64,000 bases of DNA from Rickettsiales bacterium (GTDB lineage: Bacteria; Pseudomonadota; Alphaproteobacteria; Rs-D84), in the NCBI GenBank assembly GCA_031266915.1, contig JAISAB010000001.1:37994-101993 (forward strand), in the 5' to 3' direction. The stretch's first letter is position 1, and each line of letters opens with the position of its first letter. Of the stretch, positions 1,799-56,254 are shown piece by piece. A program made the translations under genes and the position numbers. The notes under the pieces are model-generated. The model saw nothing but the letters and a program-made list of their open reading frames with translations. It made no database searches and was not told where the DNA came from.

Positions 1799-4588
1799 AT
1801 GAGCGACAATAAACTTTCCCCCGTCATGCAGCAGTATGTTGATATGAAAGCCGAAAATCCGGATGCTTTGTTATTGTTTCGCCTGGGCGATTTTTACGAG
1901 GTTTTTTTCGAAGACGCCAAAACCGTCAGCGCGGCCATCGGAATTGTCCTGACACACCGCGGCGTCGACGCGAACGGCGACGATATTCCCATGTGCGGAA
2001 TTCCCTGGCATGCGGCGGACAACTATTTCGGCCGGCTGGTTCGTGACGGGTACAAGGTCGCGCTGGTCGAACAGATGGAGACACCCGCCCAGGCCAAGGC
2101 CGCCGGACGAAAATTTGTCACCCGCCAGGTCGTGCGCGTCCTGACGCCGGGCACGCTGACGGACGAGAATCTGCTGACGCCGAAGAATTCGAATTTTCTG
2201 GTCGCGGTCGCTCCCAGGAACAAGGAACAGGAACAAGGAACAGGGGTATTGTCACCCGTTCCTTGTTCCTTTTCCTCGTTCCTGATAGCCGGTTGCGATA
2301 TTTCGACCGGCGAATTCTTTATCGGCGAATCGGCGGCCATACTGGATGATTTGGTCCGCGTCAATCCGGCCGAAATTATTTATCCTGAAACAGACGCGGA
2401 AAACCCAGAAATCATGCGTCTGCGCGACACATTCAAAACGACGCCCGTTTATGAAAAGCTGTACAATCGCGCTGACATCGATCAAATAGTATTTAAGATA
2501 TTCGGACAGAACTTCGCCTCTTCGCGGCAGGTGGAAGAGCGCAGAGTGCAGAGCGCAGTTGAAAAATCGCAGGGCGATTTTTCATCGAATCACGAATCAC
2601 GAGTTACGAGTCACGCCGCCGCCGGTTTGTGTGGCAGCGCGACCTGCAATGGGGCGGTGGCGCTGCTGGCCGGGTATCTGTTCAATACCCAGCGCGACGC
2701 CAATATCGCGTTCCGCGCGCCGTACGCTTTCAAGGCCGGAACGCAATTGCTGGTTGACAGCGCGACTTGGAAAAGCTTGGAAATCGACAGCCCAATCAAC
2801 GACGGCGGAACATGTCTGGTCGACATTCTAGACAAGACCAAAACCGCTGCCGGGGCGCGGCGCCTGCGTTCATATCTGCGCGCGCTGTCGGGCGACATCG
2901 GCGAAATCCGCCGACGCCAGGAACACATCGGCCATCTGATTCTGAACCGCGACGTCATGGGCGGGCTGGAACGGATTCTATCCCGCGTGCCCGACGTCGG
3001 CCGCAGTCTGGCGCGATTGCTGTCGGGACGCGGCGCGCCGCGTGACCTGCGCGTGGCGGCCGATTTTATGGTCATGCTTGGCGATGCAAAATCCATGGGC
3101 GCCCGCTTGGATTCAGATTTGGCGGCCAAGTTCGCAAACATCGACACGCATGACGCGCTGGCGGGTGAATTGAAATTTGCGCTGAACGACGAACTGCCGA
3201 CTTTTTTCCGCGACGGCGGAATCATCCGCGCCGGATTCGACCCGTCGCTGGACAATATGAAAGAACTGGCGAACGGCGCCAAGGAAACAATCGCCGGCCT
3301 GCAGGCTCAGTACGCTGCTGCGACCGGTGTGGGCGCGCTGCGGATAAAATACAACAACATACTCGGGTATTTTATCGAGGTCCCCAGCCCCCGCGCCGAC
3401 GCGCTGATGAATCCTGAAAACGGATTTATTCATCGCCAGACAATGGCCGGCAACATGCGCTTTACCACGCCGCGTTTAATCGATTTGGACAATGATGTCC
3501 GCAGCGCCGCCGAAAAAGCCGGGGCAATCGAATCTGAAATCATTGCGAATCTGATTGAAAAAATCCGGGCGGCGGCCGACGATTTGCTGAACACGGCGGA
3601 ATTAATCGCGGACGCAGACGTGTGGCGCGCGCTGGCCGATGTGGCCGACGAATATTCATGGGTGCGCCCCGCCGTGACCGAATCCCGAGCGTTCGACGTG
3701 CGCGGCGGCCGCCATCCGGTTATCGAGGCCGTTCTGCGTTCCCGCGGCGACGCGTTCGTTAAAAACGACTGCGTCCTGGACGGGCGGCAAATCGCGCTGT
3801 TGACCGGTCCGAACATGGCCGGAAAATCCACCTATCTGCGCCAGAACGCGCTGATTGTCGTGCTGGCGCATCTGGGCGCGTTCGTGCCGGCAGAACGCGC
3901 CACAATCGGCGTCTGCGATCAGCTGTTCAGCCGCGTCGGCGCCAGCGACAACCTGGCCGCGGGCCAGTCAACGTTTATGGTCGAGATGACGGAAACGGCG
4001 AATATTCTGAACCGCGCGACGCGCCAGTCCTTTATCATTTTCGATGAAATCGGCCGCGGAACCGCGACATACGACGGCATGGCGATTGCCCAGGCCGTAC
4101 TGGAATTTTTGGATGACGTCAAACCGCGCACCTTGTTCGCGACACATTATCATGAACTGACCGCGCTGGTACCATCGTCAGAGTTCAAAGTTCAAGGTTC
4201 AAAGTTCAAATATTCCGGTGATGAACCCGGGATCACGATTTCGCAAGACGGTTCGGCTTGCGCCCATCTGAACTCTGTTAACTGTCTGACCATAGAAATT
4301 CGCGAGCATAACGGCGAGATTGTCTTTATGCATAAAATAATTCCCGGCGTGGCCAGCCGCTCCTATGGAATACACGTTGCAAAAATGGCCGGCATACCAA
4401 TATCGGTGATAAATCGCGCCGAAGACGTCCTGAACGCGCTAGAAACCCGGACCGACGCGCCTGCGCGAAAAACGCCGCCTGCGGTCAAAAAGGTCGAAGA
4501 TGTCGACATGATTGTCGACGAGCCGGGCGTAAAACCGCAAAAAGTCGCGGCGCCTGCAAACAAAACACAGCTTTCCCTGTTTGGATAA
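1799..4588 (+). CDS. mutS: DNA mismatch repair protein MutS (carries three in-frame repeat insertions)
   Basis: 929 aa; MQQYxxxK...LFRLGDFYE N-terminus, Walker A GPNMAGKST, TFMVEMTETA; insertions at 2213-2283, 2521-2615, 4181-4210. Confidence 0.9.
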   Translation: MSDNKLSPVMQQYVDMKAENPDALLLFRLGDFYEVFFEDAKTVSAAIGIVLTHRGVDANGDDIPMCGIPWHAADNYFGRLVRDGYKVALVEQMETPAQAKAAGRKFVTRQVVRVLTPGTLTDENLLTPKNSNFLVAVAPRNKEQEQGTGVLSPVPCSFSSFLIAGCDISTGEFFIGESAAILDDLVRVNPAEIIYPETDAENPEIMRLRDTFKTTPVYEKLYNRADIDQIVFKIFGQNFASSRQVEERRVQSAVEKSQGDFSSNHESRVTSHAAAGLCGSATCNGAVALLAGYLFNTQRDANIAFRAPYAFKAGTQLLVDSATWKSLEIDSPINDGGTCLVDILDKTKTAAGARRLRSYLRALSGDIGEIRRRQEHIGHLILNRDVMGGLERILSRVPDVGRSLARLLSGRGAPRDLRVAADFMVMLGDAKSMGARLDSDLAAKFANIDTHDALAGELKFALNDELPTFFRDGGIIRAGFDPSLDNMKELANGAKETIAGLQAQYAAATGVGALRIKYNNILGYFIEVPSPRADALMNPENGFIHRQTMAGNMRFTTPRLIDLDNDVRSAAEKAGAIESEIIANLIEKIRAAADDLLNTAELIADADVWRALADVADEYSWVRPAVTESRAFDVRGGRHPVIEAVLRSRGDAFVKNDCVLDGRQIALLTGPNMAGKSTYLRQNALIVVLAHLGAFVPAERATIGVCDQLFSRVGASDNLAAGQSTFMVEMTETANILNRATRQSFIIFDEIGRGTATYDGMAIAQAVLEFLDDVKPRTLFATHYHELTALVPSSEFKVQGSKFKYSGDEPGITISQDGSACAHLNSVNCLTIEIREHNGEIVFMHKIIPGVASRSYGIHVAKMAGIPISVINRAEDVLNALETRTDAPARKTPPAVKKVEDVDMIVDEPGVKPQKVAAPANKTQLSLFG

Positions 4589-4610
4589 ACATTGCGCAAA
4601 GGCATTTGAA

Positions 4611-5600
4611 ATGAACGGATGGATAATCTTGGACAAGCCGTCAGGCATGACCAGCCGCGCCGCGGGCGGGCGCGTCATGCGTATGTTTGGCGCCGAAACG
4701 TTCGGCCATATCGGAACCTTGGACCCGATGGCGTCGGGATTGCTGCCGATTGCGCTGGGCAATGCCACCAAGATGATTCCTTTTTTCGAGAGCGAAGAGC
4801 GTAGAGCGCAGAGCGAAGGTTCCGCCGCTTCGCGGCAGAGCGCAGGTCGCAAGTCGCAGGTAGAAGATGTTGATAATAACGAACCATCTACGCTCTGCGC
4901 TCTTCGCTCTTCGACCTCTAAAGAATATCTATTCAGCGTTCAGTTCGGATTCGAAACTGATACGCTGGATATTACCGGAACGGTTGTCAAGGAAACCAAT
5001 GTTGTCCCATTGCCGGCTCAGGTTATGGCAGCGTGCGCCGCACTGACCGGAACGATTTATCAAACGCCGCCGGCCTATTCCGCGGTGCATGTCGGCGGGC
5101 GGCGCGGCTATGAACTGGCGCGCGCGGGCAAAGAATTCGAAATTCCGCCACGCCCGGTTACCATCGACGCGCTGGAATTGCTGGACGCGGGCAGAAAATC
5201 CTGGCAATTCCGCGTGGTGTGCGCGCCCGGAACATACGTTCGCGCCATTGCCCGCGACATCGCCGCGATGTGCGATACGGTCGCAACCGTGGACATGATA
5301 CGGCGCCTGCGTACCAGCGGCCTGGATATAAAAGATGCGGTCGGGCTTGATTTTTTAGAAAATCTGTTTCATAATGGCGGGAACTTCGAAGATTATTTGA
5401 AGCCTGTGGATTTCGGACTGGGGGACATTCCGGTTCTGAATCTGAACGACGCGGACGCCGGTTTATATAAACAGGGCGGCTTTGTCGAAATTGCGGCGGC
5501 GGGCGAACCGGGATTGGTTCGGGTCTTTTCAAACGGGCGGTTCATCGGAATCGGAACGTTTGACGGCAACCTGTTGAAGCCGAAACGAACACTTAACTAA
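4611..5600 (+). CDS. truB: tRNA pseudouridine(55) synthase TruB with an in-frame 127-bp palindromic insertion
   Basis: [13 protein letters not shown] and [18 protein letters not shown] motifs; start moved to Met11 (4611) to avoid overlap with mutS. Confidence 0.85.
4789..4915. repeat. Family D palindromic element (gagcgaagagcgtagagcgcagagcg ... cgctctgcgctcttcgctcttcgac) inside truB
   Basis: Arms are reverse complements; copies at 27350-27485 (in queH) and 30911-30995 (fabG-mnmG spacer); fragments at 2521-2560 and 35581-35618. Confidence 0.75.
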
Positions 5601-5973: not shown

Positions 5974-6250
5974 GTCATTGCGGGCGCAGCAAAGCAATCC
6001 AGTATAAATGGGTCTTTGGGGGCCGAATGACAGACTTCGTCTTGGAGAGACAACCCCCAAAGATAAAAACCGCGCTTAAATACAAAGGCGGTTGGAGGTT
6101 AAGAACTATCAAGTGAATAGTGCGGTGTATTCGGCAAGCCTTATTCCACCGGCCCTCCAACCGTAGTTGGAGCGTTTAACGTCAGCGCTGACGCACTTGT
6201 GGAGTTCTTAAACTCCGTGATGACAATTCGTCACCACGAAAAGTATTATA
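5974..6250. repeat. Family F ~250-bp structured dispersed element (ggcggttggaggtt ... ccctccaaccgNNggttggagcgtttaacgtcagcgctgacg)
   Basis: Three related copies (5974-6250, 37385-37560, 52411-52745) sharing gtcattgcg start, aaaaaccgcgc, ggcggttggaggtt, ccctccaacc and a gtcagcgctgac palindrome. Confidence 0.6.
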
Positions 6251-6275
6251 CCAAAAACGTATTGAAAATCCACAA

Positions 6276-6317: not shown

Positions 6318-6408
6318 GGTGGGGTGACCTTGTCCCAAGGTCACCTTGTTTTATAGGAACTTAATAGACATCAATATTAGGCAACCTTAGGGACAAGGTT
6401 GCCCCACC
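6318..6408. repeat. Family G palindromic element (ggtggggtgaccttgtcccaaggtcacc ... ggcaaccttagggacaaggttgccccacc)
   Basis: Second copy in inverted orientation at 52881-52945. Confidence 0.55.
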
Positions 6409-6427
6409 AAACACTAACGACTGCTGA

Positions 6428-13993: not shown

Positions 13994-14000
13994 AACACTA

Positions 14001-14102
14001 GCGGATAGTCAATAGTCATTGGTCTATAGTCAATAGTTAATAAAGCCGTCGGCTTCGCCGACACATTCACTACCAACTAACGACTATAGACTACTGACTA
14101 TG
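14001..14102. repeat. Family A element with central terminator-like hairpin (gccgtcggcttcgccgac)
   Basis: atagtcaatagtcattggtctatagtcaatagtt ... aactaacgactatagactactgactat. Confidence 0.6.
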
Positions 14103-14353
14103 TAAATAACCTCTGGATTTATCTGGCAATTGCGGTATAATGTTCGTCGACAGGCGCGTTGCCTGTTATGGAATTAACAATCCATCACCAAAAGGGTCTT
14201 GAACAGACCATAAACCTTCACCCAAAAGGGGTGGAGGGCGGCGTTATAAGGCTTGCCGAAGGCGTTGCACTATACTTTTGGATAGTTTGTTAATCTCCAT
14301 CCCACCTTGATTTTTAAAGGTGGTTTTCTTTTTGAAAAAAAAAGGGGGATTCG

Positions 14354-14584
14354 ATGGGACGGCAAATCACAGATGACGAAATTCAATTCAACAAAGCGCT
14401 GGGACTGGTGATACGTGTTGCCAGAATAAAGCTTGGCGTGTCGCAAAAGATACTGGGAGAAGTCGTTGGCGTATCCCTGCAGCAGATTCAAAAGTACGAA
14501 GCCGGGGAAGACGGCGTCTCTGTCGCCCGGTTTAACAAAATGGCGACTTATCTGGAAATCCCGTTTAGAATATTTGAAAAATAG
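14354..14584 (+). CDS. XRE-family helix-turn-helix transcriptional regulator
   Basis: 76 aa; LGVSQKILGEVVGVSLQQIQKYEAG is an HTH_3 signature. Confidence 0.6.
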   Translation: MGRQITDDEIQFNKALGLVIRVARIKLGVSQKILGEVVGVSLQQIQKYEAGEDGVSVARFNKMATYLEIPFRIFEK

Positions 14585-14765: not shown

Positions 14766-15238
14766 TCAAGCTGTGAACAATGCCCGTATGATGAATACAT
14801 TGGATACCGGCCTTCGCCGGGGCTAAAGGCACCCGAGGTGACAATTTTTATTGTCATCGCTTCGCGATGCTTTACGTACCTGCGCTAGGCGTGACAAAAG
14901 TTTGTTTTAATTTAAGGCACATCCCTGTCGGTTGAGCGATAAACTATACGCTATCTGCCATATGCTATTTTTTCCTATTTTTCCATTGTGCTGAAAATTC
15001 GCACGCGCTATAGTTGTCTTGTCGACGGGTGTTCCGTCGATGGGGTCTGATAACCCTTTATTGTGCGTCGTGAATAATCACCGCGCTTTTGCGCCGTTTT
15101 TATTTCGACGAAAAACAACTCCTGACTCGGTCAGGAGGGCGCGATATATCTGAATAAGCGCGCAATTCACAATATTGTTATCAGCCTCCTGACCGCCTAT
15201 TTTCGGCGGTTTTTACTTAACTGCAACAGGAGGATATT

Positions 15239-15460
15239 ATGGGGAAAATTTTGCTGCTTTTGATAATCGCCGCTTTCGCGTCCATTGGCTCGTCGCCATC
15301 GCATGCGGTACAATCATACCAAAGTATAGCGGCATGCACCAATGCGGGCGGGGTGGTTTATGACGGCTGCATGTGCAAGGTCGCAAAAACCACCACGAAC
15401 TACGGCGTCATAACCACCAGCACGGAATGCGGTACCATAGCCGGTCTGGCCTGCATCTAA
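15239..15460 (+). CDS. Small cysteine-rich secreted protein
   Basis: Signal peptide MGKILLLLIIAAFASIGSSPSHA; six Cys in 50 residues; RBS AGGAGG. Confidence 0.4.
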   Translation: MGKILLLLIIAAFASIGSSPSHAVQSYQSIAACTNAGGVVYDGCMCKVAKTTTNYGVITTSTECGTIAGLACI

Positions 15461-15473
15461 AAAAGGATTAAAA

Positions 15474-15857
15474 ATGTCTAGATTTGTCTCTGTTTTTTCC
15501 GGGCTGTCGTTGCTGTCTGGGGCGGCGGCCAGCGCGCCGCCGCCGACTTCGCTTGGCGACGAATGCGACACGAAATCATATACCTGCGCGAACGGATATT
15601 ACGGCACGCCGACCGATAGTTCTACCGGATGTACGCTATGCCCCGAGCACGCTACATGCGCCGGCACGGGCAACACAACATTCATATGTATTTCAGGATA
15701 TTATAAAATTGGCGCCACGTGTGCGCCCTGCCCCGATGGCGGCACATCAATTGCGGGCGCGCGGGCGATAACCGATTGTTATCTGCCCACTGGAACATCA
15801 TTTGAAGATGCGTACGGAACTTTTGAATTGACCGACAAGTGTTATTATAGCAATTAA
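15474..15857 (+). CDS. Cysteine-rich secreted protein (eukaryote-like CxxCP / GYY repeats)
   Basis: Signal peptide; CTLCPEHATCAGTGNTTFICISGYYKIGATCAPCPDGG; followed by a terminator. Confidence 0.5.
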   Translation: MSRFVSVFSGLSLLSGAAASAPPPTSLGDECDTKSYTCANGYYGTPTDSSTGCTLCPEHATCAGTGNTTFICISGYYKIGATCAPCPDGGTSIAGARAITDCYLPTGTSFEDAYGTFELTDKCYYSN

Positions 15858-15884
15858 AAAACCGGCAAAAAAGCCGGTTTTTTA
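15858..15884 (+). terminator. Rho-independent terminator
   Basis: accggcaaaaaagccggt hairpin followed by tttttt. Confidence 0.6.
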
Positions 15885-15887
15885 ATA

Positions 15888-15982
15888 AATAGTCGTTAGT
15901 CTATAGTCATTAGTGAATAGTGCTTAGTTTATAGTGCATAGTTAATAGTTCACTAATCACTATGCACTATTCACTAGTGATT
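15888..15982. repeat. Family A element
   Basis: atagtcgttagtctatagtcattagtgaatagtgcttagtttatagtgcatag...cactattcactagtgat. Confidence 0.55.
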
Positions 15983-16330: not shown

Positions 16331-16344
16331 ATTTTCGGGGAGAT

Positions 16345-16470
16345 TAATAGTTAGTCAACAGTCATTGGTCTATAGTCAGTAGTGTATAGCAAATAGCACA
16401 TACAATTAGGTGGTTATTTCAGATTTATGATTTAAGATATAAGATTTAGGCGACATTAAATCTTAAATTT
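16345..16470. repeat. Family A unit followed by family I gatttatgatttaagat repeats
   Basis: tagtcaacagtcattggtctatagtcagtagtg; agatttatgatttaagatataagatttag...taaatcttaaattt. Confidence 0.5.
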
Positions 16471-26970: not shown

Positions 26971-27291
26971 ATGTATATGACATCAAAAGAACTTCCAGCA
27001 ATGCATAAACTTGCCATACGTGGTTCAGGCAGTTTAGGCGGCAATATGGTGCAGTTTTTCTGCGGGGACCATTGCAAAAACTATCATAACGGAATATGCG
27101 AAAAATATTGCGAGTTTAGTGAAGTCTTTCTTAAGAGGGTGTACATTTCCGATACCCCGTTTGTCATTACCGGCTATTCACCGAATGTTTTTCTGACCAC
27201 CAGCAATGAATCTGATAGAACGAAAATTTTAAATATGTTTAACCAGACAATGGCACAATTCGCAAAGCAAAACGATGGACGCAATGCATGA
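26971..27291 (+). CDS. Hypothetical AT-rich Cys/His-rich small protein
   Basis: ORF only; FFCGDHCKNYHNGICEKYCEF; ~38% GC; overlaps the queH start. Confidence 0.3.
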   Translation: MYMTSKELPAMHKLAIRGSGSLGGNMVQFFCGDHCKNYHNGICEKYCEFSEVFLKRVYISDTPFVITGYSPNVFLTTSNESDRTKILNMFNQTMAQFAKQNDGRNA

Positions 27292-28000
27292 AAAAATCCG
27301 CCTTGTTTTGTTGTCGTGCTGCGCGCCGTGTTCCTGCGGCGCTATAAAAGAGTTAGTAGAGTGTAGAGCGCAGAGCGAAGGTTTCGCCGCTTCGCGGCAG
27401 AGTGAATGTCGCAGGTCGCAGGTAGAAGGTGTTGATAATGACGAACCACCTACGCTCTGCGACCTGCGATCTACGCTCTTCGACTTTATCGTCTTGTTCT
27501 ATAACCCTAATATTTATCCCGATACCGAATACCAGAAACGGTTGGCGGAACAAATCAGATACTGCGAATCATTGGATGTGAAATATGCCGTCGGCGATTA
27601 TGACCACGCCGCGTGGCTGAATTCCGTGCGCGGCCTAGAATCAGAGCCTGAGCGTGGCAAGCGCTGCACGCAGTGTTTCCGCCACAGATTTCGTTTCGCA
27701 AAACAGTGGGCGATGGAAAACGGATACAACGCTATCGCGTCCGTTCTGGGCGTGTCACGTCACAAAGACCAGGCACAGGTCGACAGCGCGGCGCGGGAAG
27801 AAATAGGGAACGGGGAACCCGCCTTCGCCATCCACCTTCGCCGAGGCTACGGGGGACAAGAGGCTACGGCGGGCAGGCAGGAACAAGGAATAATTTATCT
27901 GCCTATCAAATTGGATGAAAGTCTGCGCCAGGAAATTAGCAAAAAGGCCGGCTTTTACCGCCAGAATTACTGCGGCTGCGAGTTTTCAATGCGAAAATAA
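27275..28000 (+). CDS. queH: Epoxyqueuosine reductase QueH (DUF208) with two in-frame repeat insertions
   Basis: LLSCCAPCS, LFYNPNIYPDTEY, RCTQCFRHRF, YRQNYCGCEFS hallmarks of QueH; insertions at 27350-27485 (family D) and 27805-27895 (family E). Confidence 0.7.
   Translation: MDAMHEKIRLVLLSCCAPCSCGAIKELVECRAQSEGFAASRQSECRRSQVEGVDNDEPPTLCDLRSTLFDFIVLFYNPNIYPDTEYQKRLAEQIRYCESLDVKYAVGDYDHAAWLNSVRGLESEPERGKRCTQCFRHRFRFAKQWAMENGYNAIASVLGVSRHKDQAQVDSAAREEIGNGEPAFAIHLRRGYGGQEATAGRQEQGIIYLPIKLDESLRQEISKKAGFYRQNYCGCEFSMRK
27350..27485. repeat. Family D palindromic element inside queH
   Basis: agagcgcagagcgaaggtttcgccgcttcgcggcagag...ggtagaaggtgttgataatgacgaaccacctacgctctgcg; co-linear with the truB copy. 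Confidence 0.75.
27805..27895. repeat. Family E element (ccttcgccgaggctacggcgggcaggcaggaacaaggaa) inside queH
   Basis: Reverse complement of 40094-40186; shares the ggaacaaggaacagg core with mutS 2213-2283. Confidence 0.65.
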
Positions 28001-36191: not shown

Positions 36192-36935
36192 ATGAAAATA
36201 ACATTGACGCCTGAAATTTATTTTACAAAAGTGCCGCCTACGCTGGATATGAACGTGCGCAGCGAATTGTACAGCACCAACGAATTCACTTTCGCAGTGG
36301 CGGTCATCCTGTCGGCCCAGGCCACGGATAAAAAGGTGAACGAAGTCACGCCCGCGCTATTCGCCGAAGCCCCGACGCCCGAAGCGATGCTGATATTGGG
36401 CGAGGACGGCCTGAAAAAACATATCAAGGTTATATCTTTTTTTAACAACAAGGCGAAAAATATTATCGGACTGGCGCAAATGCTTGTCTCCCCCCTCTTG
36501 GGGGGGAATACCCGCGGAGCGGGGGAGGGGGAGCTCCCCCCAGTCTCGCTCCGCGAGACAGCCCCCCTCAAAGAGGGGGGCACATGGCGCTTTCCGGACG
36601 AATATCATAACCAGCGGGCGCTGATGGCGCTGCCCGGAATCGGGCAAAAGACCGCCAACGTCGTCATGAACGTCTTATGGGGCGCGCCGATGATTGGCGT
36701 GGACACGCATGTTTTCCGCAATGCGCATCGCTACGGATGGGTCGGCGCATCCGACGACACGCCCGAAAAGGTCGAGGCGAAACTGCTGAAACTGATTCCG
36801 AAAAAATACCACGCGATGGTCAACCACGTGATGGTCCTGCACGGGCGTTATACCTGCAAGGCATTGCGACCGCGATGCGCGGACTGCCCAGTTGCGCAAT
36901 GGTGCAACGCGCCTGACAAGAATCTGCCGATATAA
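36192..36935 (+). CDS. nth: Endonuclease III (Nth) with ~100-bp in-frame G/C-rich palindromic insertion
   Basis: HhH motif LPGIGQKTANVVMNVLWG and FeS cluster C-x6-C-x2-C-x5-C at the C-terminus; insertion at 36486-36585. Confidence 0.8.
   Translation: MKITLTPEIYFTKVPPTLDMNVRSELYSTNEFTFAVAVILSAQATDKKVNEVTPALFAEAPTPEAMLILGEDGLKKHIKVISFFNNKAKNIIGLAQMLVSPLLGGNTRGAGEGELPPVSLRETAPLKEGGTWRFPDEYHNQRALMALPGIGQKTANVVMNVLWGAPMIGVDTHVFRNAHRYGWVGASDDTPEKVEAKLLKLIPKKYHAMVNHVMVLHGRYTCKALRPRCADCPVAQWCNAPDKNLPI
36486..36585. repeat. Family J G/C-rich palindromic element (gtctcccccctcttggggggg ... cccccctcaaagaggggggcac) inside nth
   Basis: Related cccccctcttgggggg segment at 52490-52512. Confidence 0.6.
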
Positions 36936-36941
36936 TTCAAT

Positions 36942-36974
36942 ATCGAATTACGAGTCACGAATTACGAATCTCGA
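36942..36974. repeat. Family C cgaattacgagtcacgaattacgaatc repeat
   Basis: Copies at 2586, 37604, 41862, 45208, 50491, 52951; usually next to terminator hairpins. Confidence 0.55.
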
Positions 36975-37089: not shown

Positions 37090-37368
37090 TTACCAGCCGC
37101 CTTTTAGCTTTTCGGCGCACCCAACCGATTCGCTGCCCATCAAGAAACTGATGCCGATACCGATTGCAAACAGCAGCGCGAATCCGACCAGCATTGGGAT
37201 GCCTTTGGATTTCAGGGTTTCCATAACGGTCGTTTTCCCGTCCGTCGTAATCAGCCCCCACGCCATGTTGGCCAGGACGAATCCCGCGCCGACAAACGCC
37301 AGAACGCGCAGCGTCTGGAATACACCCTGCATCGAGTCTATAAGATTGCATAATCCTGATTCGTTCAT
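37090..37368 (-). CDS. Two-TM small membrane protein, possibly VirB2/TrbC-like pilin
   Basis: 92 aa from Met 37368 (GGAGG SD); LIDSMQGVFQTLRVLAFVGAGFVLANMAWG resembles the VirB2 core (NNICTFILGPFGQSLAVLGIVAIGISWMFG); a second hydrophobic helix follows. Confidence 0.4.
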   Translation of the reverse strand: MNESGLCNLIDSMQGVFQTLRVLAFVGAGFVLANMAWGLITTDGKTTVMETLKSKGIPMLVGFALLFAIGIGISFLMGSESVGCAEKLKGGW

Positions 37369-37384
37369 TTCAAACCTCCGTGTT

Positions 37385-37560
37385 TTACGAACAAAAAAAC
37401 CGCGCAATTGTGTGGCGGTTGGAGGTTCATGACAATTTTTGGGAATTGTGCCGCTTATTCAATATATTCGCAGGCCCTCCAACCGACGGTTGGAGTTTTT
37501 CGTCGAAACACCGACGCCCAAAACAGAGGTCATGACACCCCATCGCAGGAACACCCCGCG
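37385..37560. repeat. Family F structured element (short copy)
   Basis: aaaaaccgcgc...ggcggttggaggtt...ccctccaaccgacggttggag. Confidence 0.55.
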
Positions 37561-37633
37561 ACAAACTGATTATATCAGAATATAAGACAATTACAAATAA
37601 AATATCGAATCACGAGTCACGAATTACGAATCA

Positions 37634-37662
37634 CGAAAAAAACCGCCGAACGGCGGTTTTTT
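37634..37662. terminator. Bidirectional terminator downstream of pheT
   Basis: aaaaaaaccgccgaacggcggttttttt. Confidence 0.6.
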
Positions 37663-42077: not shown

Positions 42078-42905
42078 TTGGCGATGAACCAGAAAAAAAT
42101 ATCTTCCAAAGTGCTGTCTTATGCGAAATCGGCGCTGGCCGCGGCTGTTTTGCCGGTCTTTTTGATATATGTCATGATTGACAAGCCCGATTACAAGATT
42201 ATCGGCGCCATGTCGCACATTGTCCTGCCGGCGGCGAACTGGGTCGGCGATGTCGTGTCGTGGCCGATACGGGCCGTGGCCAGCGGCGTGGCGGGAATAC
42301 GCGAGCTGTCCAATCTGCGCGGCGAGAACGAAGAACTGCGCGCCAAATTGGACCAGGCCCTGCGCATGCGCAACGAATGCGGCGTGGCAATTTCGGAAAA
42401 CCAAAGGCTGGCCCGAGAGCTGGACATGGTCCGCGCGTCGCCGCAAAAGGCGGTCGCTGCGCTGGTTTCCTATAACAACGACGCGTTTCACCACAGCACG
42501 TTTTTCATAGACAAGGGCGCGCGCGCCGGCATCGAGCCCGGCATGGCCGTCGTTTCGTTTGACGGGCGGCTGGCGGGCATCGTCATCGACGCGGGGCCGA
42601 CCTTTGCCAAGGTCCGCAGCCTGACGGATTCGAAATCGAACATACCCGTCCGCGTCGCCGGGTCCGAGGTCTACGGTTTTCTGCAGGGCAGCGGTTCCGG
42701 CGACCCGACGATGGGATTTTTCAGCGACCCTGAATTCCAGCCAACCCGGGGCTTGAAACTGGTCACCAGCAACATCCGCGGCGTGCTGCCCGACGGAATA
42801 ATCGTGGGCGAGATGTCCAATTCGACGGACGCGTCCGTTCTGCGCCCGACGCGCATGTCCAGCGTTATGGTTCTGCAGTTCGACGGCAAGGACAAATACA
42901 AATAG
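42078..42905 (+). CDS. mreC: Rod shape-determining protein MreC
   Basis: N-terminal TM, coiled coil LRGENEELRAKLDQAL, beta-rich C-terminal domain; followed by mreD-mrdA-rodA. Confidence 0.8.
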   Translation: MAMNQKKISSKVLSYAKSALAAAVLPVFLIYVMIDKPDYKIIGAMSHIVLPAANWVGDVVSWPIRAVASGVAGIRELSNLRGENEELRAKLDQALRMRNECGVAISENQRLARELDMVRASPQKAVAALVSYNNDAFHHSTFFIDKGARAGIEPGMAVVSFDGRLAGIVIDAGPTFAKVRSLTDSKSNIPVRVAGSEVYGFLQGSGSGDPTMGFFSDPEFQPTRGLKLVTSNIRGVLPDGIIVGEMSNSTDASVLRPTRMSSVMVLQFDGKDKYK

Positions 42906-43005
42906 TGAATAGTGATTAGTGCATAGTTTATAGTGACTAGCGGGCTAGCTACAACACTGCAAACTAAACACTAAGCACTATAAACTAAACACTATAAACT
43001 AATGG
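42903..43005. repeat. Family A element
   Basis: atagtgaatagtgattagtgcatagtttatagtgactag...cactataaactaaacactataaactaatgg. Confidence 0.55.
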
Positions 43006-45210: not shown

Positions 45211-45285
45211 TTGGTAATTGGTAATCCGTAATCGGTAATTCGAACATTGCGGTCGGATTACCGATTACGAATCACGAGTCACGGC
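45208..45285. repeat. Family C long palindromic form
   Basis: gtgattggtaattggtaatccgtaatcggtaattcgaacattgcggtcggattaccgattacgaatcacgagtcacg. Confidence 0.55.
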
Positions 45286-50449: not shown

Positions 50450-50490
50450 CACGGCCCGCGCGTACGACCTTGAATTGATGTTTTGTCATC

Positions 50491-50549
50491 TTACGAGTCA
50501 CGAGTTACGAATCACGAAAAAAACCGGTCTTTTTGCCGGCTTTTTAATT
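50491..50549. repeat. Family C repeat plus weak hairpin/T-run
   Basis: cttacgagtcacgagttacgaatcacgaaaaaaaccggtctttttgccggcttttt. Confidence 0.4.
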
Positions 50550-52410: not shown

Positions 52411-52745
52411 GTCATTGCGAGGGGCGTCAGCCCCGCGGCAATCCAGTAAAACAAATTCGTGCGCCCAATGGGCGCACTCTCTTTTTTTCTCCCCCCTCTT
52501 GGGGGGCAAATGCAAAATAATCACAAATTAGGTCTTTTGGGGTCGAATGACACACTTATATCTTGGAGAGAAATAACAACCCCCAAAGGTAAAAACCGCG
52601 CTTTGCAAATTAAAGGCGGTTGGAGGTTAGTTACTACTATATAGAATAGTGCGGTGTTTTTGGACAAGTCCTTATGGCACCGACCCTCCAACCGATGGTT
52701 GGAGCGGTTTAACGTCAGCGCTGACGCTATATAGAAGGGTAACTA
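52411..52745. repeat. Family F structured element (long copy, with nested cccccctcttgggggg segment)
   Basis: gtcattgcg...ggtcttttggggtcgaatgacac...aaaaaccgcgctttgcaaattaaaggcggttggaggtt...ccctccaaccgatggttggagcggtttaacgtcagcgctgacgc. Confidence 0.6.
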
Positions 52746-52880
52746 CACCCCCGTCGCCGGACGAGTATATCATCCGCCGACCTAGGTATTATACACGAAT
52801 ATATTTGAAAAATCTACAAATTAAAAAATTAATGTTTCTTTTATGCCGGTATGACGCCAAATGAGAAGAATGTCGAAAAA

Positions 52881-52945
52881 GGTGGGGCAACCTTGGGACA
52901 AGGTTGCCTGAAAAAGGTGACCTTGTCCCCAAGGTCACCCCACCC
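52881..52945. repeat. Family G element (inverted relative to 6318-6408)
   Basis: ggtggggcaaccttgggacaaggttgcc...ggtgaccttgtccccaaggtcaccccacc. Confidence 0.55.
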
Positions 52946-53532
52946 AATATTTCGGATTACGATTCACGAAAAAAATCGCGCCCGTTGGGCGCGATACTTT
53001 AAATACAAGGGATTCCCATCTTCATGGGAATTTCCTTACTTTTTCTTAAAACCCTGTTTCGCCTTGAATTTGGGATTGTCTGGGTCAATAAGAATAACTT
53101 GTTTGCCGCGGCGAATCTGTTTTACATTGCCGCGCTTTTTCCAAGCCTTCAAAGAACTTAAGAACTTCATGTCATATTCCTTTTTGCCATGCGATTATAA
53201 CCGCTTTTTATAAGAAATCAACCAAAACTTCTAATAATAGTTTAATATTCGCTATACATTCAACCGTTATATGAAATTTCAATTTCTTATTAATATATTG
53301 TTGTTGTTTTTATACAGGTTAAAATTGTTAAAAACGCTTTTAATTTTTTTATCAACTGATTTTCAACAAAAAAAGCCGGTGTTTTCGCGCCTGTTTATAA
53401 AAATGTTAAAAAATATCGCCGGTAATCAACAGTTGAAAAACATATAAGTTTCCGGCTTTTTCAACAAATTTTTCAGATTTGTTTTTATGCTTGTTGAAAA
53501 ATGTTGAAATTGTTATAATTAACCCGTACCGA

Positions 53533-53844
53533 ATGGAGACGAGAGAATTGCGGCAACAAGTCCTGAAAGCTTTGGCGAACCCATCGCGCATATTTTATGT
53601 GCCCTATACGCTGGCGGTTTTAAATTTCGTGCTGCAGTTTCTGGTATTCATCGTCATTTTCATAGGCGGTCTGATAATTTCCGGCGGCGGCGTGGGAATA
53701 AACCCTCTGGCGTTTTTAATATCCGTGATGGCGGTTCATTCGATTTTGGCCGGCTTTTCCAAACGAGAGCCTCAGCTGGCGCAGATTATCGCGGCCAAAT
53801 TGCGCCTATTTAAATCGCGCGCCCCGAACAAGTTGACGGCATGA
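53533..53844 (+). CDS. virB3: Type IV secretion system protein VirB3-like
   Basis: ~104 aa; IFYVPYTLAVLNFVLQFLVFIVIF ... VMAVHSILAGFSKREPQLAQI fits the VirB3 pattern; immediately upstream of virB4. Confidence 0.6.
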   Translation: METRELRQQVLKALANPSRIFYVPYTLAVLNFVLQFLVFIVIFIGGLIISGGGVGINPLAFLISVMAVHSILAGFSKREPQLAQIIAAKLRLFKSRAPNKLTA

Positions 53845-53845
53845 T

Positions 53846-56254
53846 ATGAATCAATTCTTGGAATATTTTATCACTGGGGGATTTTCGATGACATCGGTCA
53901 TTCTGGCCATGGCCGTCGTTTTCGTGTTCATTATCCTGATGTTGTACGTTCCTACAATCGCGCTGTGGATTTTCCCAAAGTTCGGATACAAGAAATATTC
54001 TCAATACCTGCCGTTCGCGACGGTGTTCACGGACAATTCGATTCAGCTGACCGACGGGTCCTTGATAAGGGCTTATAAAATCGACGGTGTTCAAACCAGC
54101 ATGCAGGACGAGAAAACCCGCAACCAATTCCTGGATTTGCGCGCACAGCTGTTCAACCAAATCAACGACCCCGGCGTTACCCTGCGCTTTTACACAATTC
54201 GCGATTTCGCGGCCGATAAGACTGATTACGAATTCGACGGGCCGACGCTGCAGAAAATTTACGACAAGTGGAACAGCCAGGGGTTGAAGATTTTCACGAA
54301 CAGCTATTATGTGGTTCTGTCGGTTGGCGGGTCGAACGCCAGAGAAAAGCTGAACCAGTACGGCAACTATATCGAATCCATACTGGCCGCGTACGGACCC
54401 AGCGTTCTGGACAACGCGCGCCCGGAAAATATGGCGAAATTGTTCGCCCGAATCCTATCGCCGATCACCAAGCCGCGGCCTGCACGGTGCGACCAAAGAA
54501 TCGCGGAAACAATAACCGTCGACGATGTGGAATTTCTGGGCAACGGACTGATCCGGTATTCCAGCGGCGCCAAAAAATCGTACGCCGCGACCGTATCGTT
54601 CAAGGTGTCCCCGGATTATCTGGACGAGGAATTCTTCAACACCGTGTCCACCATCCAATGCGAGATGATAACCATGAACGGATTCCGCATTATGGGCGCG
54701 GCCGATATAGGCAACGTCATCCGCCAACGGCGCGCCACGTCCGATAATAACGACGACGCGGCCGAGGAACAAATCCGCGACGCGCAATCCGCGATGGACG
54801 AGAACGCGGCCGGCACGCAGACGCTGCTGAACTATTACCCGCTGTTCGTTCTGTTCGGCGACACGGTCGAATCTCTGCAGGACGGCGTCGACGAATTCAA
54901 AAAGATTTCGGCGGCTTTCGGCATATCGCCGGTTGTGGAAAACTTTGCGTCCAAGGTTTCGTGGTTCTCGCAGATTCCTGGATTCGACGTGTTTCCGCGC
55001 AGTTTCAAAATGCTGTCGAAAACAGCCGCGGTCAGCATACCAATGTCATCGACGCCCAAAGGCGTCGCGAATTCAGACTGGGGTCCGGGCCCGCTGGTCG
55101 TATTTCCGACAGCCCAGGGAACGCCGTATATGTTCCAATTCCACGTATCCGCCGCGCCCGCGGCCGTGGGCCATACGCTGACGGTCGGCCCGACGGGCGG
55201 CGGAAAAACGACGCTGTTCTCGTTCCTGATAGCGCAATCGCTGCGACATCCGAAATTAAAGGCTTTCTTTTTCGACCGGAACAAGGGCGCCGAAATCTTC
55301 ACGCTGTCGGTCGGCGGAAAATACGTGACCATGCAGAACAAGGAAAAATCCGCCGGCATGGGATTCGAGGCGCATTTGAATCCACTGAAGATGGAGGACA
55401 GTGTCGCCAACCGCGCGTTCCTGCGCCGATGGCTCGCGATGATTTCGGGGCAGTCCGACACGCGTTCCGCGGACGAAATCGCACGCGCGGTATCCGTCAA
55501 TTTCGATTACTTGGGCGACAAGGACCGGATGTTGAAAAGCCTATGGGAAAGCTGCTTTTCGTCCGAGGGCAATATGCGCGGCGCGCTGAAAAAATGGGTC
55601 GACCCGCTGCAATACGGCGAAATATTCAATGAAACCGCCGATACGCTGGATTTGCAGTCGCGTCTGACCACGTTCGATTTTACCGAAATTCTGCAGGACC
55701 AGACATTGTCGCCGGCCGTGATTTCATACATCCTGCACCGGATAAACAACACGACCGTGTCGGGCGGAAATCCGTCGCTGATTATGATTGACGAAACGGC
55801 GCCGATGCTGGAAAACAAGATGTTCCGCGACAACTTTATCGTCGGCCTGCAAGAGGGCCGCAAAAACCGCCAGGCCTATATGGTGGCCTTTCAGCGCGCG
55901 AACGTGCTGGACAAGCTGGGTATCGGCGACGTGGTGCGCGGCCAGGCGCAGACGGTTTTATTCTTCCGCAATCCGGCGGCCGACGCGAACGATTACCAGT
56001 ACTGGAATCTCAATCCCTTGGAAATGGCGTTCATCCAGGGCAAGGCTTATCCGAACCTGAAGCGCGCGGTGCTGCTCTCGCGCCCGGTAAATGGCGAATC
56101 AGTGATTCTGAATACGGAGCTCGGCGGATTGGGCAGTTTGCTGCGCCTGTTCGAATCCGGCCGCTCCAGCGTGCTTTTGGCCGAAGAGCTGTACAGGCAG
56201 TACGGGAATAATTTCGTCGGCGAATACTTGCGCAAACAGGGCGCGGTGGAATAA
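53846..56254 (+). CDS. virB4: Type IV secretion system ATPase VirB4
   Basis: 802 aa; Walker A TVGPTGGGKTTLFSFL; Walker B LIMIDETAPML; N-terminal TM region. Confidence 0.9.
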   Translation: MNQFLEYFITGGFSMTSVILAMAVVFVFIILMLYVPTIALWIFPKFGYKKYSQYLPFATVFTDNSIQLTDGSLIRAYKIDGVQTSMQDEKTRNQFLDLRAQLFNQINDPGVTLRFYTIRDFAADKTDYEFDGPTLQKIYDKWNSQGLKIFTNSYYVVLSVGGSNAREKLNQYGNYIESILAAYGPSVLDNARPENMAKLFARILSPITKPRPARCDQRIAETITVDDVEFLGNGLIRYSSGAKKSYAATVSFKVSPDYLDEEFFNTVSTIQCEMITMNGFRIMGAADIGNVIRQRRATSDNNDDAAEEQIRDAQSAMDENAAGTQTLLNYYPLFVLFGDTVESLQDGVDEFKKISAAFGISPVVENFASKVSWFSQIPGFDVFPRSFKMLSKTAAVSIPMSSTPKGVANSDWGPGPLVVFPTAQGTPYMFQFHVSAAPAAVGHTLTVGPTGGGKTTLFSFLIAQSLRHPKLKAFFFDRNKGAEIFTLSVGGKYVTMQNKEKSAGMGFEAHLNPLKMEDSVANRAFLRRWLAMISGQSDTRSADEIARAVSVNFDYLGDKDRMLKSLWESCFSSEGNMRGALKKWVDPLQYGEIFNETADTLDLQSRLTTFDFTEILQDQTLSPAVISYILHRINNTTVSGGNPSLIMIDETAPMLENKMFRDNFIVGLQEGRKNRQAYMVAFQRANVLDKLGIGDVVRGQAQTVLFFRNPAADANDYQYWNLNPLEMAFIQGKAYPNLKRAVLLSRPVNGESVILNTELGGLGSLLRLFESGRSSVLLAEELYRQYGNNFVGEYLRKQGAVE

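Follow-up and report, generated by a model that had tools for sequence, protein, structure and literature searches.

A multi-copy family of 5' leader RNAs with a putative terminator/antiterminator switch in gut Alphaproteobacteria

What are the short structured elements that recur between the genes of a Rickettsiales bacterium from the uncultured Rs-D84 group? In a 64,000-nucleotide (nt) stretch of its genome (GCA_031266915.1, contig JAISAB010000001.1, hereafter the window), an initial annotation had marked three related stretches at 5974-6250, 37385-37560 and 52411-52745, here called copies A, B and C, and had read them as either a non-coding RNA (ncRNA) with a conserved structure or a miniature inverted-repeat transposable element (MITE). 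That observation is real but was incompletely described: the ncRNA reading names the right kind of thing, and the MITE alternative does not hold. Each copy is not a free-standing dispersed repeat but a 5' leader unit that runs from promoter to terminator, on the strand opposite to the one first read. Judging from sequence comparison, we think it fairly probable that the copies are a multi-copy, default-off terminator/antiterminator leader that controls XRE-type regulators and secreted proteins in gut Alphaproteobacteria.

The three stretches are indeed homologous: blastn aligns A with C over 198 nt at 82% identity (E=2e-45), and the ~110-nt core is also found in B. The window holds five copies rather than three, however, with two more, D (15018-15217) and E (14145-14331), in the inverted orientation, first located by blastn at ~15019-15197 and ~14229-14327, respectively. 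A covariance model (CM; model R1) finds exactly these five in the window, scoring B at 133, A at 119, D at 95, C at 94 and E at 80 bits with E-values of 1e-21 to 8e-37 (the latter for B), although all five belonged to the seed of the model and their match to it is partly by construction. On these scores, chance resemblance among the window copies is excluded. The motifs first quoted are all present, namely the aaaaaccgcgc box, the pair ggcggttggaggtt...ccctccaacc enclosing ~55 nt, and the hairpins ccaaccgNNggttgg and gtcagcgctgac, but two of them are less general than was claimed. The gtcattgcg start occurs in A and C, not in B, and belongs to a separate repeat (5974-6000, 52411-52444), while the hairpin gtcagcgctgac (P4 below) is likewise found in A and C, with a different hairpin in B and none in most homologues elsewhere. 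The element boundaries move as well, as the A and C spans had lumped together three parts:

6062-6240 (A): leader
6013-6063 (A): hairpin module
5974-6000 (A): GCAATCC repeat
52588-52783 (C): leader
52534-52588 (C): hairpin module
52411-52444 (C): GCAATCC repeat

The RNA is read from the minus strand in A, B and C and from the plus strand in D and E, and in this direction the units share one order: an extended -10 promoter, a ~180-nt structured RNA and an intrinsic terminator, followed by a ribosome-binding site (RBS) and ATG where an open reading frame (ORF) is present. A TATAAT-type box opens every window copy, as TGnTATAAT in most, and a short GC hairpin with a U-run closes each; seen in reverse, the 3' half of this terminator is the 'aaaaaccgcgc box'. 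In an alignment of 78 sequences, from which the TG was read by eye, TATAAT is invariant or near-invariant and TTGCAA stands at -35 in many copies. Homologues follow the same plan in RNA orientation, from the -35 TTGCAA and -10 box through the structured region to the terminator and an A-rich spacer. A terminator scanner called the terminators of D (15191-15211) and E (14302-14323) and none for A or B in the regions scanned, where the stem is broken by a 1-nt bulge; the terminator hairpins of A, B and C are seen in the predicted folds.

Homologues were found by scanning 185,579 species genomes with the pattern GGCGGTTGGAGGN{35,65}CCTCCAACCG, which gave 94 stretches, ~80 of them true homologues. 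The others, GC-rich palindromes from Streptomyces, Roseomonas and Anaerolineales, were ruled out because the CM does not match them. The CM itself, a check that the initial annotation had suggested, recovers more than 100 family members. The hosts are metagenome-assembled genomes (MAGs) of uncultured Alphaproteobacteria (Ca. Enterousia, 'Rickettsiales bacterium' and 'uncultured Alphaproteobacteria'); going by isolate names, several come from the gut, caecum or rumen. Several MAGs of the group often carry at least 4-6 copies per assembly. Ca. Enterousia is part of order Rs-D84, a group with genomes that mostly fall below 1 Mb (PMC12306168). At the DNA level, the window's housekeeping genes share 66-81% identity with the homologue loci, which places both in the same broad group. 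In 76 of 82 homologues, a Shine-Dalgarno sequence and start codon follow on the same strand within 200 nt of the leader's segment 3 (described below), usually 40-55 nt away, and this short distance leaves no space for a second promoter.

The constant placement bears on the MITE alternative, a mobile dispersed DNA repeat whose hairpins would be left over from terminal inverted repeats or REP-like palindromes and have no role as RNA. Such a repeat would account for many dispersed copies in intergenic regions that are already filled with repeats, and for the 82% identity of A and C, which includes their flanks. We nevertheless regard it as extremely unlikely. There are no terminal inverted repeats, with a best end-to-end 12-mer match of 7-10 out of 12 at both the earlier and the revised boundaries, and no target-site duplications, the 12-nt flanks of the five copies being unrelated. 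Orientation and spacing to the downstream start are constant, the copies have a promoter and terminator of their own, and their compensatory changes, with the G-U over A-C bias given below, are explained only by RNA on one strand. Among 2.9 million viral contigs, the main pattern had no matches and no phage context was found.

All five window copies have the same minimum free energy (MFE) architecture, which we call form T. It consists of a 5' hairpin (P1), a long helix (P2-P3) that closes a multiloop, an optional P4, P5 formed by segments 1 and 2, P6, and the terminator. In a MAFFT alignment of 75 sequences (A4), 92.2% of the cells of form T are paired compared with 76.8% in shuffles, 26 pairs are changed on both sides, and neither any of 500 shuffles nor any slid control reaches these values. 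The conserved RNA structure proposed for the candidate ncRNA is thus upheld, but not the remark that variation is confined to loops: several stems differ completely among copies and yet remain complementary. P1, P2, P3 and P6 covary strongly. An all-against-all mutual-information (MI) scan, run before any structure was imposed, picks P2, P1 and P6, with columns 41-45:224-229 of P2 showing 4-5 pair types each and MI of up to 1.5. P3 is hypervariable and is misaligned by MAFFT; an alignment-free test found 6.3 contiguous pairs within sequences and 3.8 between sequences, and in a CM-fitted alignment, which leans to the model, P3 reaches MI of 1.1-1.5 with 5-6 pair types. The terminator helix is 96.4% paired in the 75 sequences. 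Among unpaired nucleotides, conservation is highest in the P6 loop GAAUAUAUUGAAUAAG (GAAUAA-stem-GAAUA in long versions), a CACUAU junction and an A-run before segment 1, which are candidate recognition sites. One further pair, between A4 columns 38 and 203 (B ~37537 and ~37448; 42:233 in CM-fitted columns), covaries from U:A to C:G with 91% standard pairs and MI of ~0.6. Its partners are the P2 5' strand and, in the CACUAU junction, the base that immediately precedes CUAU; the pair fits neither form T nor the alternative form described below, and may reflect a tertiary contact, a third state or shared ancestry.

The same helices fix the transcribed strand, since G-U cells outnumber A-C cells by 268 to 60 on the proposed strand, and promoter and downstream ORFs lie on that strand too. 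An RNA or structure on the strand first read (plus for A, B and C), or a single-stranded DNA site of the attC or oriT kind near type IV secretion system (T4SS) genes, is therefore very unlikely. Watson-Crick helices form on both strands, P5 with its T-run scores as a terminator on the other one, the related sRNA-Xcc1 (see below) lies in integron cassettes, and the window has virB3 and virB4. But the 268 G-U cells would turn into A-C mismatches on the other strand, compared with 60 in the opposite case; the proposed strand carries promoter, terminator, RBS and ORFs alike; and the copies are dispersed among housekeeping genes (rpsO, sspB, pheT and sufD), with no cassette array and no adjoining relaxase. 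As a separate matter, P5 and the complemented A-run, taken on the antisense strand, are scored as an intrinsic terminator (37477-37495, plus strand; 15119-15137, minus strand), and the leader could also stop convergent transcription in this way.

The leaders contain three segments, CUCCAAC (segment 1), GGUUGGAGG (segment 2) and CCUCCAACC (segment 3), in which 1 pairs with 2 or 2 pairs with 3, each pairing excluding the other; the complementary stretches are CUCCAAC, CGGUUGGAGGG and CCUCCAACCG. Segment 3 overlaps both the P2 3' strand (CCUCC) and the terminator 5' strand (AACCGCC). The 2:3 helix overlaps the terminator stem at alignment columns 239-242, so that pairing 2:3 removes the 5' half of the terminator. 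The three-way complementarity is kept in four sequence versions (loci outside the window carry L numbers):

Version 1: CUCCAAC/GGUUGGAG/CUCCAACC
Version 2: segment 1 CUCCUGA(C) (CUCCUGAC), then GUCAGGAG and CUCCUGAC; in D, L020:1116 and L092:5229
Version 3: CUUCACCC/GGGGUGGAG/CUCCAUCCC; in E
Version 4: CCCCCGGC/GUCGGGGAG/CUCCCCGAC; in L060:283-486

In L080:5639 and L009:4047, segment 2 reads GGAGU and segment 3 ACUCC, which keeps the 2:3 pairing and creates a mismatch in P2. The changed positions of segment 3 lie outside the terminator stem and P2, and therefore only pairing with segment 2 explains the changes. The search pattern fixed segments 2 and 3 in 70 of the 75 aligned sequences, so the real test lies in copies found by other means. 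A metagenome scan with a P6-loop pattern, meant to sample both segments without bias, gave five true members, all of version 1 and none with new segment types.

The alternative architecture, form A, consists of the 2:3 helix with P6 and P7, and is the consensus that RNAalifold chooses. On the alignment it is 95.6% paired compared with 84.3% in shuffles and beats all controls. Pairs that exist in form A only covary as well: 35:48, in a local hairpin that takes up the GRGG released from P2, occurs as AU in 25, GC in 27 and GU in 20 sequences, and 205:222, in P7, as UA in 62 and AU in 12. The terminator changes from CCGCC/GGCGG to CCACC/GGUGG with compensation. P3 and P7 cross, and the connecting loops look to us too short for a pseudoknot; on this reading the two helices cannot coexist, which implies two states, with P3 assigned to form T and P7 to form A. 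The parts of each window copy are as follows:

37569-37596, minus: promoter of B (-35 TTGTAA 37591-37596, 16-nt spacer, TGaTATAAT 37569-37577; promoter scan 10/12 plus TG)
37392-37565, minus: leader of B, by CM and MFE fold
37542-37562: P1 of B
37526-37541: P2 5' strand or local hairpin of B
37501-37516: P4 of B
37488-37495: segment 1 of B
37475-37485: segment 2 of B
37451-37474: P6 of B
37432-37449: P7 of B, with the P3 3' strand in its loop
37414-37431: P2 3' strand, segment 3 and terminator 5' strand of B
37393-37405: terminator 3' strand and U-run of B
6245-6253, minus: extended -10 of A, TGgTATAAT (-35 weak, at 19-nt spacing, and uncalled by the scanner)
6062-6240, minus: leader of A, by CM and folds
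6217-6237: P1 of A
6201-6216: P2 5' strand of A
6194-6199: P3 5' strand of A
6180-6193: P4 of A
6166-6172: segment 1 of A
6153-6163: segment 2 of A
6123-6152: P6 of A
6105-6121: P7 / P3 3' strand of A
6087-6104: P2 3' strand and segment 3 of A
6065-6075: terminator 3' strand and U-run of A
52588-52793, minus: -10 and leader of C (TATAAT 52788-52793, leader 52588-52783)
52753-52781: P1 of C
52713-52726: P4 of C
52697-52704: segment 1 of C
52684-52694: segment 2 of C
52652-52683: P6 of C
52615-52632: segment 3 region of C
52591-52601: terminator 3' strand and U-run of C
15009-15217, plus: -10 and leader of D (TATAGT 15009-15014, leader 15018-15217)
15021-15041: P1 of D
15066-15110: enlarged P4 of D
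15119-15126: segment 1 of D, CUCCUGAC
15129-15139: segment 2 of D, GGUCAGGAGGG (compensatory version 2 of the three segments)
15140-15162: P6 of D
15178-15214: segment 3 and terminator of D
14132-14333, plus: unit E (-10 TATAAT 14136-14141, leader 14145-14331)
14149-14167: P1 of E
14216-14223: segment 1 of E, CUUCACCC
14228-14238: segment 2 of E, GGGGUGGAGGG (compensatory version 3)
14239-14267: P6 of E
14287-14333: segment 3 (CUCCAUCCC) and terminator of E

The sequences thus show how the units are built, which strand is read, the helices, the exclusivity of the two pairings and the association with genes; that termination is modulated, and by what, we infer. In the mechanism that we propose, each copy would be a self-contained transcription unit whose first ~180 nt act as a cis-acting leader RNA, with transcription starting ~7 nt past the TGnTATAAT box. 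In the terminating form T, the RNA would fold into P1 and the long irregular P2-P3 helix, the distal part of which differs in every copy, and P2-P3 would close a multiloop with optional P4, P5 (CUCCAAC paired with GGUUGGAG) and P6. The terminator hairpin AACCGCC...GGCGGU and its U-run would then stop transcription ~20-30 nt before the RBS. In the read-through form A, segment 2 would swap segment 1 for segment 3 (CCUCCAACCG), taking 4 of the 6-7 nt of the terminator 5' strand and closing a three-way junction with P6 and P7, while the GRGG freed from P2 folds onto a local CCYC. Because form T is the more stable and P5 is made first, termination would be the default and read-through would call for a trigger that captures segment 1, opens P2/P5 or stabilises the junction. 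Such a trigger may be a trans-acting protein, RNA or ligand that acts at the P6 internal loop (GAAUA / AAUAAG) or on segment 1. Under this control would come XRE-type regulators, secreted Cys-rich or surface proteins, a small membrane protein (B) and, in A and C, a hairpin that mimics segment 1.

By analogy, the working logic appears closest to that of protein- or ligand-dependent intrinsic-terminator attenuators. As in those systems and in riboswitch platforms, the pairings 1:2, 2:3 and 3:4 are exclusive, 3:4 being the terminator with its U-run right before the RBS, and a default-off logic of this kind needs an antitermination signal. The leaders have a GC-rich hairpin and U-run between promoter and RBS, and a conserved alternative pairing that excludes the terminator, the latter established from few independent events. 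They differ from attenuators of the trp, T-box and PyrR/TRAP/ANTAR types in having no leader peptide, in matching no riboswitch, T-box or leader family in Rfam, and in lacking, by eye, the paired hexaloops of ANTAR targets. As in riboswitches, some unpaired nucleotides are conserved (the P6 loop and the CACUAU junction), but no known aptamer in Rfam matches, and as the cargo, that is, the genes downstream, consists of regulators and secreted proteins with no metabolic pathway, the context points to no metabolite and offers no guess at a ligand.

The same 1:2, 2:3, 3:4 logic is known from amino-acid operon leaders, where a ribosome on a short ORF over segment 1 would choose between 1:2 and 2:3, and B and D do hold ORFs of 44-45 codons that start at the 5' end. 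This trp-type explanation was nevertheless rejected, because the 75 leaders share no conserved start, frame or length, and we give it next to no credence. Near the 5' end, 20 of the 75 have no start codon; ORF length ranges from 8 to 51 codons; an ORF preceded by a Shine-Dalgarno sequence is present in only 28 of the 75, with varying frame and length; the putative start lies inside the P1 stem; and substitutions track base pairing, not codons.

Several points count against the attenuator mechanism. The switch is deduced from sequence alone, and the covariation counts come from related sequences, with the CM-fitted alignment biased to the model. The evidence for 2:3 rests on ~10 variant copies, which possibly represent few independent events. 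In silico, form A is far less stable than form T, which is favoured by 14-16 kcal/mol over the best fold with 2:3 forced and still by 6-11 kcal/mol before the terminator 3' strand is transcribed. The terminator stems are short, at 6-7 bp with loops of 7-12 nt. No ORF follows A, C or several of the copies that stand in tandem in L018 and L080, which fits a small RNA (sRNA) gene equally well. The nearest relative in Rfam also points that way: sRNA-Xcc1 is a stable 88-nt RNA of X. campestris, seen by Northern blot (PMC2996969), and was later called trans-acting in the title of Chen et al. 2011, as cited in bioRxiv 10.1101/2025.06.18.660453.

How close is that relative? At gathering threshold, Rfam 15 yields four tRNAs only in the whole window, and searches at permissive E-values, run on four of its sub-regions and on related loci, bring no family up to threshold, which answers the Rfam search first suggested for these elements in the negative. 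Scores for sRNA-Xcc1 (RF02221; gathering score 53 bits) stay below threshold, at 40.3 bits for L060 (301-391), 35.2 for L010, 31.3 for L098 and 29.6 for D; A and B have no match at E<=10, E has none at E<=5, and C was covered by the gathering-threshold scan of the window only. However, the full RF02221 model (1-87 of 87) aligns with the core from segment 2 to segment 3 of several copies, including the P6 internal loop, and the L060 copy, with 32 bits from the leader CM and 40 from the Xcc1 model, bridges both families. The likeness extends to the three-way junction, where form A has a 9-11-bp G-rich closing helix around two hairpins, the first of them with an AUA(CAAUAC)...GAA(UAA) internal loop, and both families are multi-copy, can be tandem and lie just upstream of small genes (PMC12189769; bioRxiv 10.1101/2025.06.18.660453). 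In contrast to sRNA-Xcc1, the leaders have ~90 extra nt 5' of the core (P1, the P2/P3 5' strands, P4 and segment 1) that compete with the closing helix, and a separate terminator hairpin that overlaps segment 3; their hosts are gut Alphaproteobacteria rather than Xanthomonadaceae and others; and sRNA-Xcc1 was published as a trans-acting sRNA, not an attenuator. Judged by these alignments, the leader family is a distant, extended relative of sRNA-Xcc1 and not a member.

A second comparison is with c4 RNA of phages P1 and P7 (RF01695, RF03163). The c4 RNA of P1 blocks icd translation and acts through Rho-dependent polarity. Like the leaders, it is a structured RNA in the 5' part of a regulatory operon with complementary segments up- and downstream, and its specificity segments are hypervariable. 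Helix P1 of the leaders together with the local hairpin gives weak matches to c4-a1b1 (D 17.5 bits, L009 28.7 bits), below the gathering score of 46.7, and the C4 family (RF01695) has no match in the permissive Rfam searches. A downstream target of the a2/b2 kind for the hypervariable P2/P3 strands was sought and none was found (own 7.60, cross 7.62). The leaders further differ in that their competing segment is half of an intrinsic terminator, and no phage context was found for them in the viral contigs.

The leaders could be read as a small trans-acting or processed RNA of the sRNA-Xcc1 or c4 type, in which the ~85-nt junction of segments 2 to 3 is excised or terminated as a stable sRNA, the P2/P3 5' strands and segment 1 hold the precursor inactive, and proximity to genes is incidental or serves co-expression. 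The full-length alignment to RF02221 speaks for this, with its AUACAAUAC...GAA internal loop in P6, as do the 88-nt RNA on the Northern blot (PMC2996969), the tandem arrays of sRNA-Xcc1 beside C4 and isrK in Xylella (PMC12189769), and the copies without ORFs (A, C and the tandem ones in L018 and L080). Form A would also expose the hypervariable P3/P2 3' strands in the P7 loop and adjoining junction, like antisense determinants. We still consider it rather unlikely, since every Xcc1 score is below 53 and most copies have no match, the hypervariable segments have no downstream cis target, and some nine copies out of ten have, a short and constant distance downstream, an RBS and an ORF that lacks its own promoter, so that cargo expression must cross the terminator. 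Moreover, sRNA-Xcc1 itself lies upstream of symE in an integron cassette (bioRxiv 10.1101/2025.06.18.660453), and an Xcc1-like copy in Nitratidesulfovibrio stands ~50 nt before an ORF; Xcc1 may be a leader too.

That Nitratidesulfovibrio element (L096 1180-1320, N. vulgaris plasmid NZ_CP116247) has a closing helix GGCCGGGAG...CUCCCGGCC, and the ORF that follows has an AGGAGG RBS, beside a transposase. It suggests that Xcc1-type RNAs are leaders elsewhere as well. Tandem leaders occur too, with three copies within ~700-800 bp at L080 5639-6413 and L018 2370-3028, and resemble the sRNA-Xcc1 arrays reported in Xylella (PMC12189769); between the L018 copies there are no ORFs, only hairpins that mimic segment 1.

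In the preferred attenuator reading, the genes behind the terminator are what the switch would control. In the window they are:

37090-37379, minus (B): RBS GGAGG 37375-37379, ATG 37368, 92-aa small hydrophobic protein (VirB2-like label unconfirmed)
15228-15460, plus (D): RBS AGGAGG 15228-15233, ATG 15239, 73-aa Cys-rich protein with a signal-peptide-like N-terminus
15474-15857, plus: second ORF after the D cargo, 127-aa, Cys-rich, weak VSP-like match
14354-14584, plus (E): 76-aa XRE-family helix-turn-helix (HTH) protein (Pfam HTH_3 E=8.5e-10, HTH_31 E=6.3e-7)
6013-6063, minus (A): hairpin with a 13-bp stem and UCUCUCCAAGA, the segment 1 mimic, in its loop (-24.2 kcal/mol, z=-4.3)
52534-52588, minus (C): hairpin with a UCUCUCCAAGA loop, a weaker fold than that of A (z=-1.0)

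Among 43 distinct small cargo proteins, Pfam matches are to HTH_31 in 31, HTH_19 in 23 and HTH_3 in 22. Larger cargo proteins mostly have signal-peptide-like N-termini and Cys-rich repeats, with scattered Pfam matches (Flg_new, Ephrin_rec_like and one glycosyltransferase). By a rough heuristic, HTH genes have short leaders that lack P4, and signal-peptide proteins have long ones that include it. Pairs of a leader-XRE unit followed by a leader-secreted protein unit recur in L060, L094 and, as E-D, in the window. Copy B, once described as adjoining a VirB2-like gene, is the minus-strand 5' leader of that small gene, but the VirB2 label has no support, as the protein has no Pfam or NCBIfam match.

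No ORF follows the leaders of A and C. The hairpin module found there also follows ORF-less leaders in L018 (twice), L019, L081 and L086, with unrelated stems of 9-17 bp, which defeat the MAFFT alignment and made RNAalifold uninformative on the seven hairpins; folded singly, they have z from -1.0 to -6.2. UCUCCA is invariant in all seven loops, and the five from outside the window share (C/U)AUCUCCA(A/C). This loop motif is the sequence context of segment 1 in other leaders (L037, L062, L075) and is complementary to segment 2, and A and C thereby place a segment 1 mimic under attenuator control. A more far-reaching idea, which we hold with considerable doubt, is that gut symbionts with reduced genomes may use the family as a regulatory circuit made of RNA only. 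The hairpin of ORF-less copies, a UCUCCAA mimic of segments 1 and 3, would act in trans, either by binding segment 2 (GGUUGGAGG, taken here to be the same in all leaders of one genome) in every leader or by serving as decoy to a factor that binds segment 1. The result would be feedback over a regulon of XRE regulators and of surface proteins that are secreted or T4SS-associated; on this view, what is seen of such a device in Xanthomonas would be its core, sRNA-Xcc1. Trans action of the A and C hairpins is speculation.

The family, with its unusually clear covariation, precedes a large part of the genes for small transcription factors and secreted proteins in an uncultured gut lineage (Rs-D84 / Ca. 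Enterousia and relatives) in which few regulatory devices are known, and no description of the family was found in the literature searched. Should the attenuator reading prove right, both the regulon and the orphan switch would be new. The link to sRNA-Xcc1, an sRNA tied to virulence regulators, suggests that Xcc1 could be the read-through fold of a cis-acting leader. For annotation, the ~180-nt units, above all those without ORFs, should not be named repeats or MITEs.

The neighbourhood of copy C had raised a connection to type IV secretion. Genes for virB3 (Pfam E=1.5e-5) and virB4 (CagE_TrbE_VirB, E=5e-14) lie at 53479-56254 of the window among housekeeping genes, a scattered T4SS arrangement of the kind known from Rickettsiales. 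C does precede them, ~690 bp upstream of virB3, but it is transcribed away from virB3, and in the 620 bp that separate its promoter from virB3 there are only repeats and short unsupported ORFs. The link of the leaders to type IV secretion is thin, because C points away from virB3 and virB4 and the family of the B cargo is unconfirmed.

The GTCATTGCG...GCAATCC hairpin repeat (5974-6000, also 52411-52444) is a separate family, and B, D and E do not have it. Its copies at A and C are downstream of the leader in the opposite orientation, whereas in many related genomes (L002, L012, L020, L026, L030, L072 and L076) it lies directly upstream of leader promoters as ...GGCAATCCAGTAAATATTTGCAAA, a position in which the tail of the repeat supplies the -35 TTGCAA. 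A palindromic dispersed repeat, GGTGGGG(T/C)(G/A)ACCTTG...CAAGGT(C/T)ACC, flanks the promoter side of A and C (6320-6410, 52880-52950).

The metagenome scan was dominated by a eukaryote-like repeat from termite-gut samples, ~200 nt long and high-copy in ORF-poor eukaryote-like contigs (L099-L149 and many others; e.g. L154 11052-11080). It carries CCUCCAAUAUGGAGGG then GCUGCGAAUAUAUUGAAUAAGCAG, a look-alike of P5 and P6 with an identical 16-nt loop. The CM matches it at positions 72-119 only (17-20 bits), and Rfam has no family for it; the resemblance could be chance, ascertainment or a shared module.

Tandem 7-nt repeats fill many intergenic regions of the window, in two kinds, one ATAGTCA/TTAGTGA-like and the other CGAATCA/CGAGTCA-like. 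They usually adjoin terminators and also lie just upstream of the B promoter. The sites are:

1063-1101, 13998-14050, 15875-15955, 16344-16396 and 42888-42940: tandem 7-nt repeats
2576-2615, 36934-36973, 37596-37635, 45244-45283 and 50477-50516: tandem 7-nt repeats

Finally, a 118-nt repeat (family D12) occurs at 4796-4913 and 27358-27475 with 88% identity, inside two unrelated ORFs (4581-5600, truB-like pseudouridine synthase by eye only, and 27275-28000). It is rich in GCAGAGC/GCAGGTC heptamers, as if it were an in-frame insertion into coding sequence.

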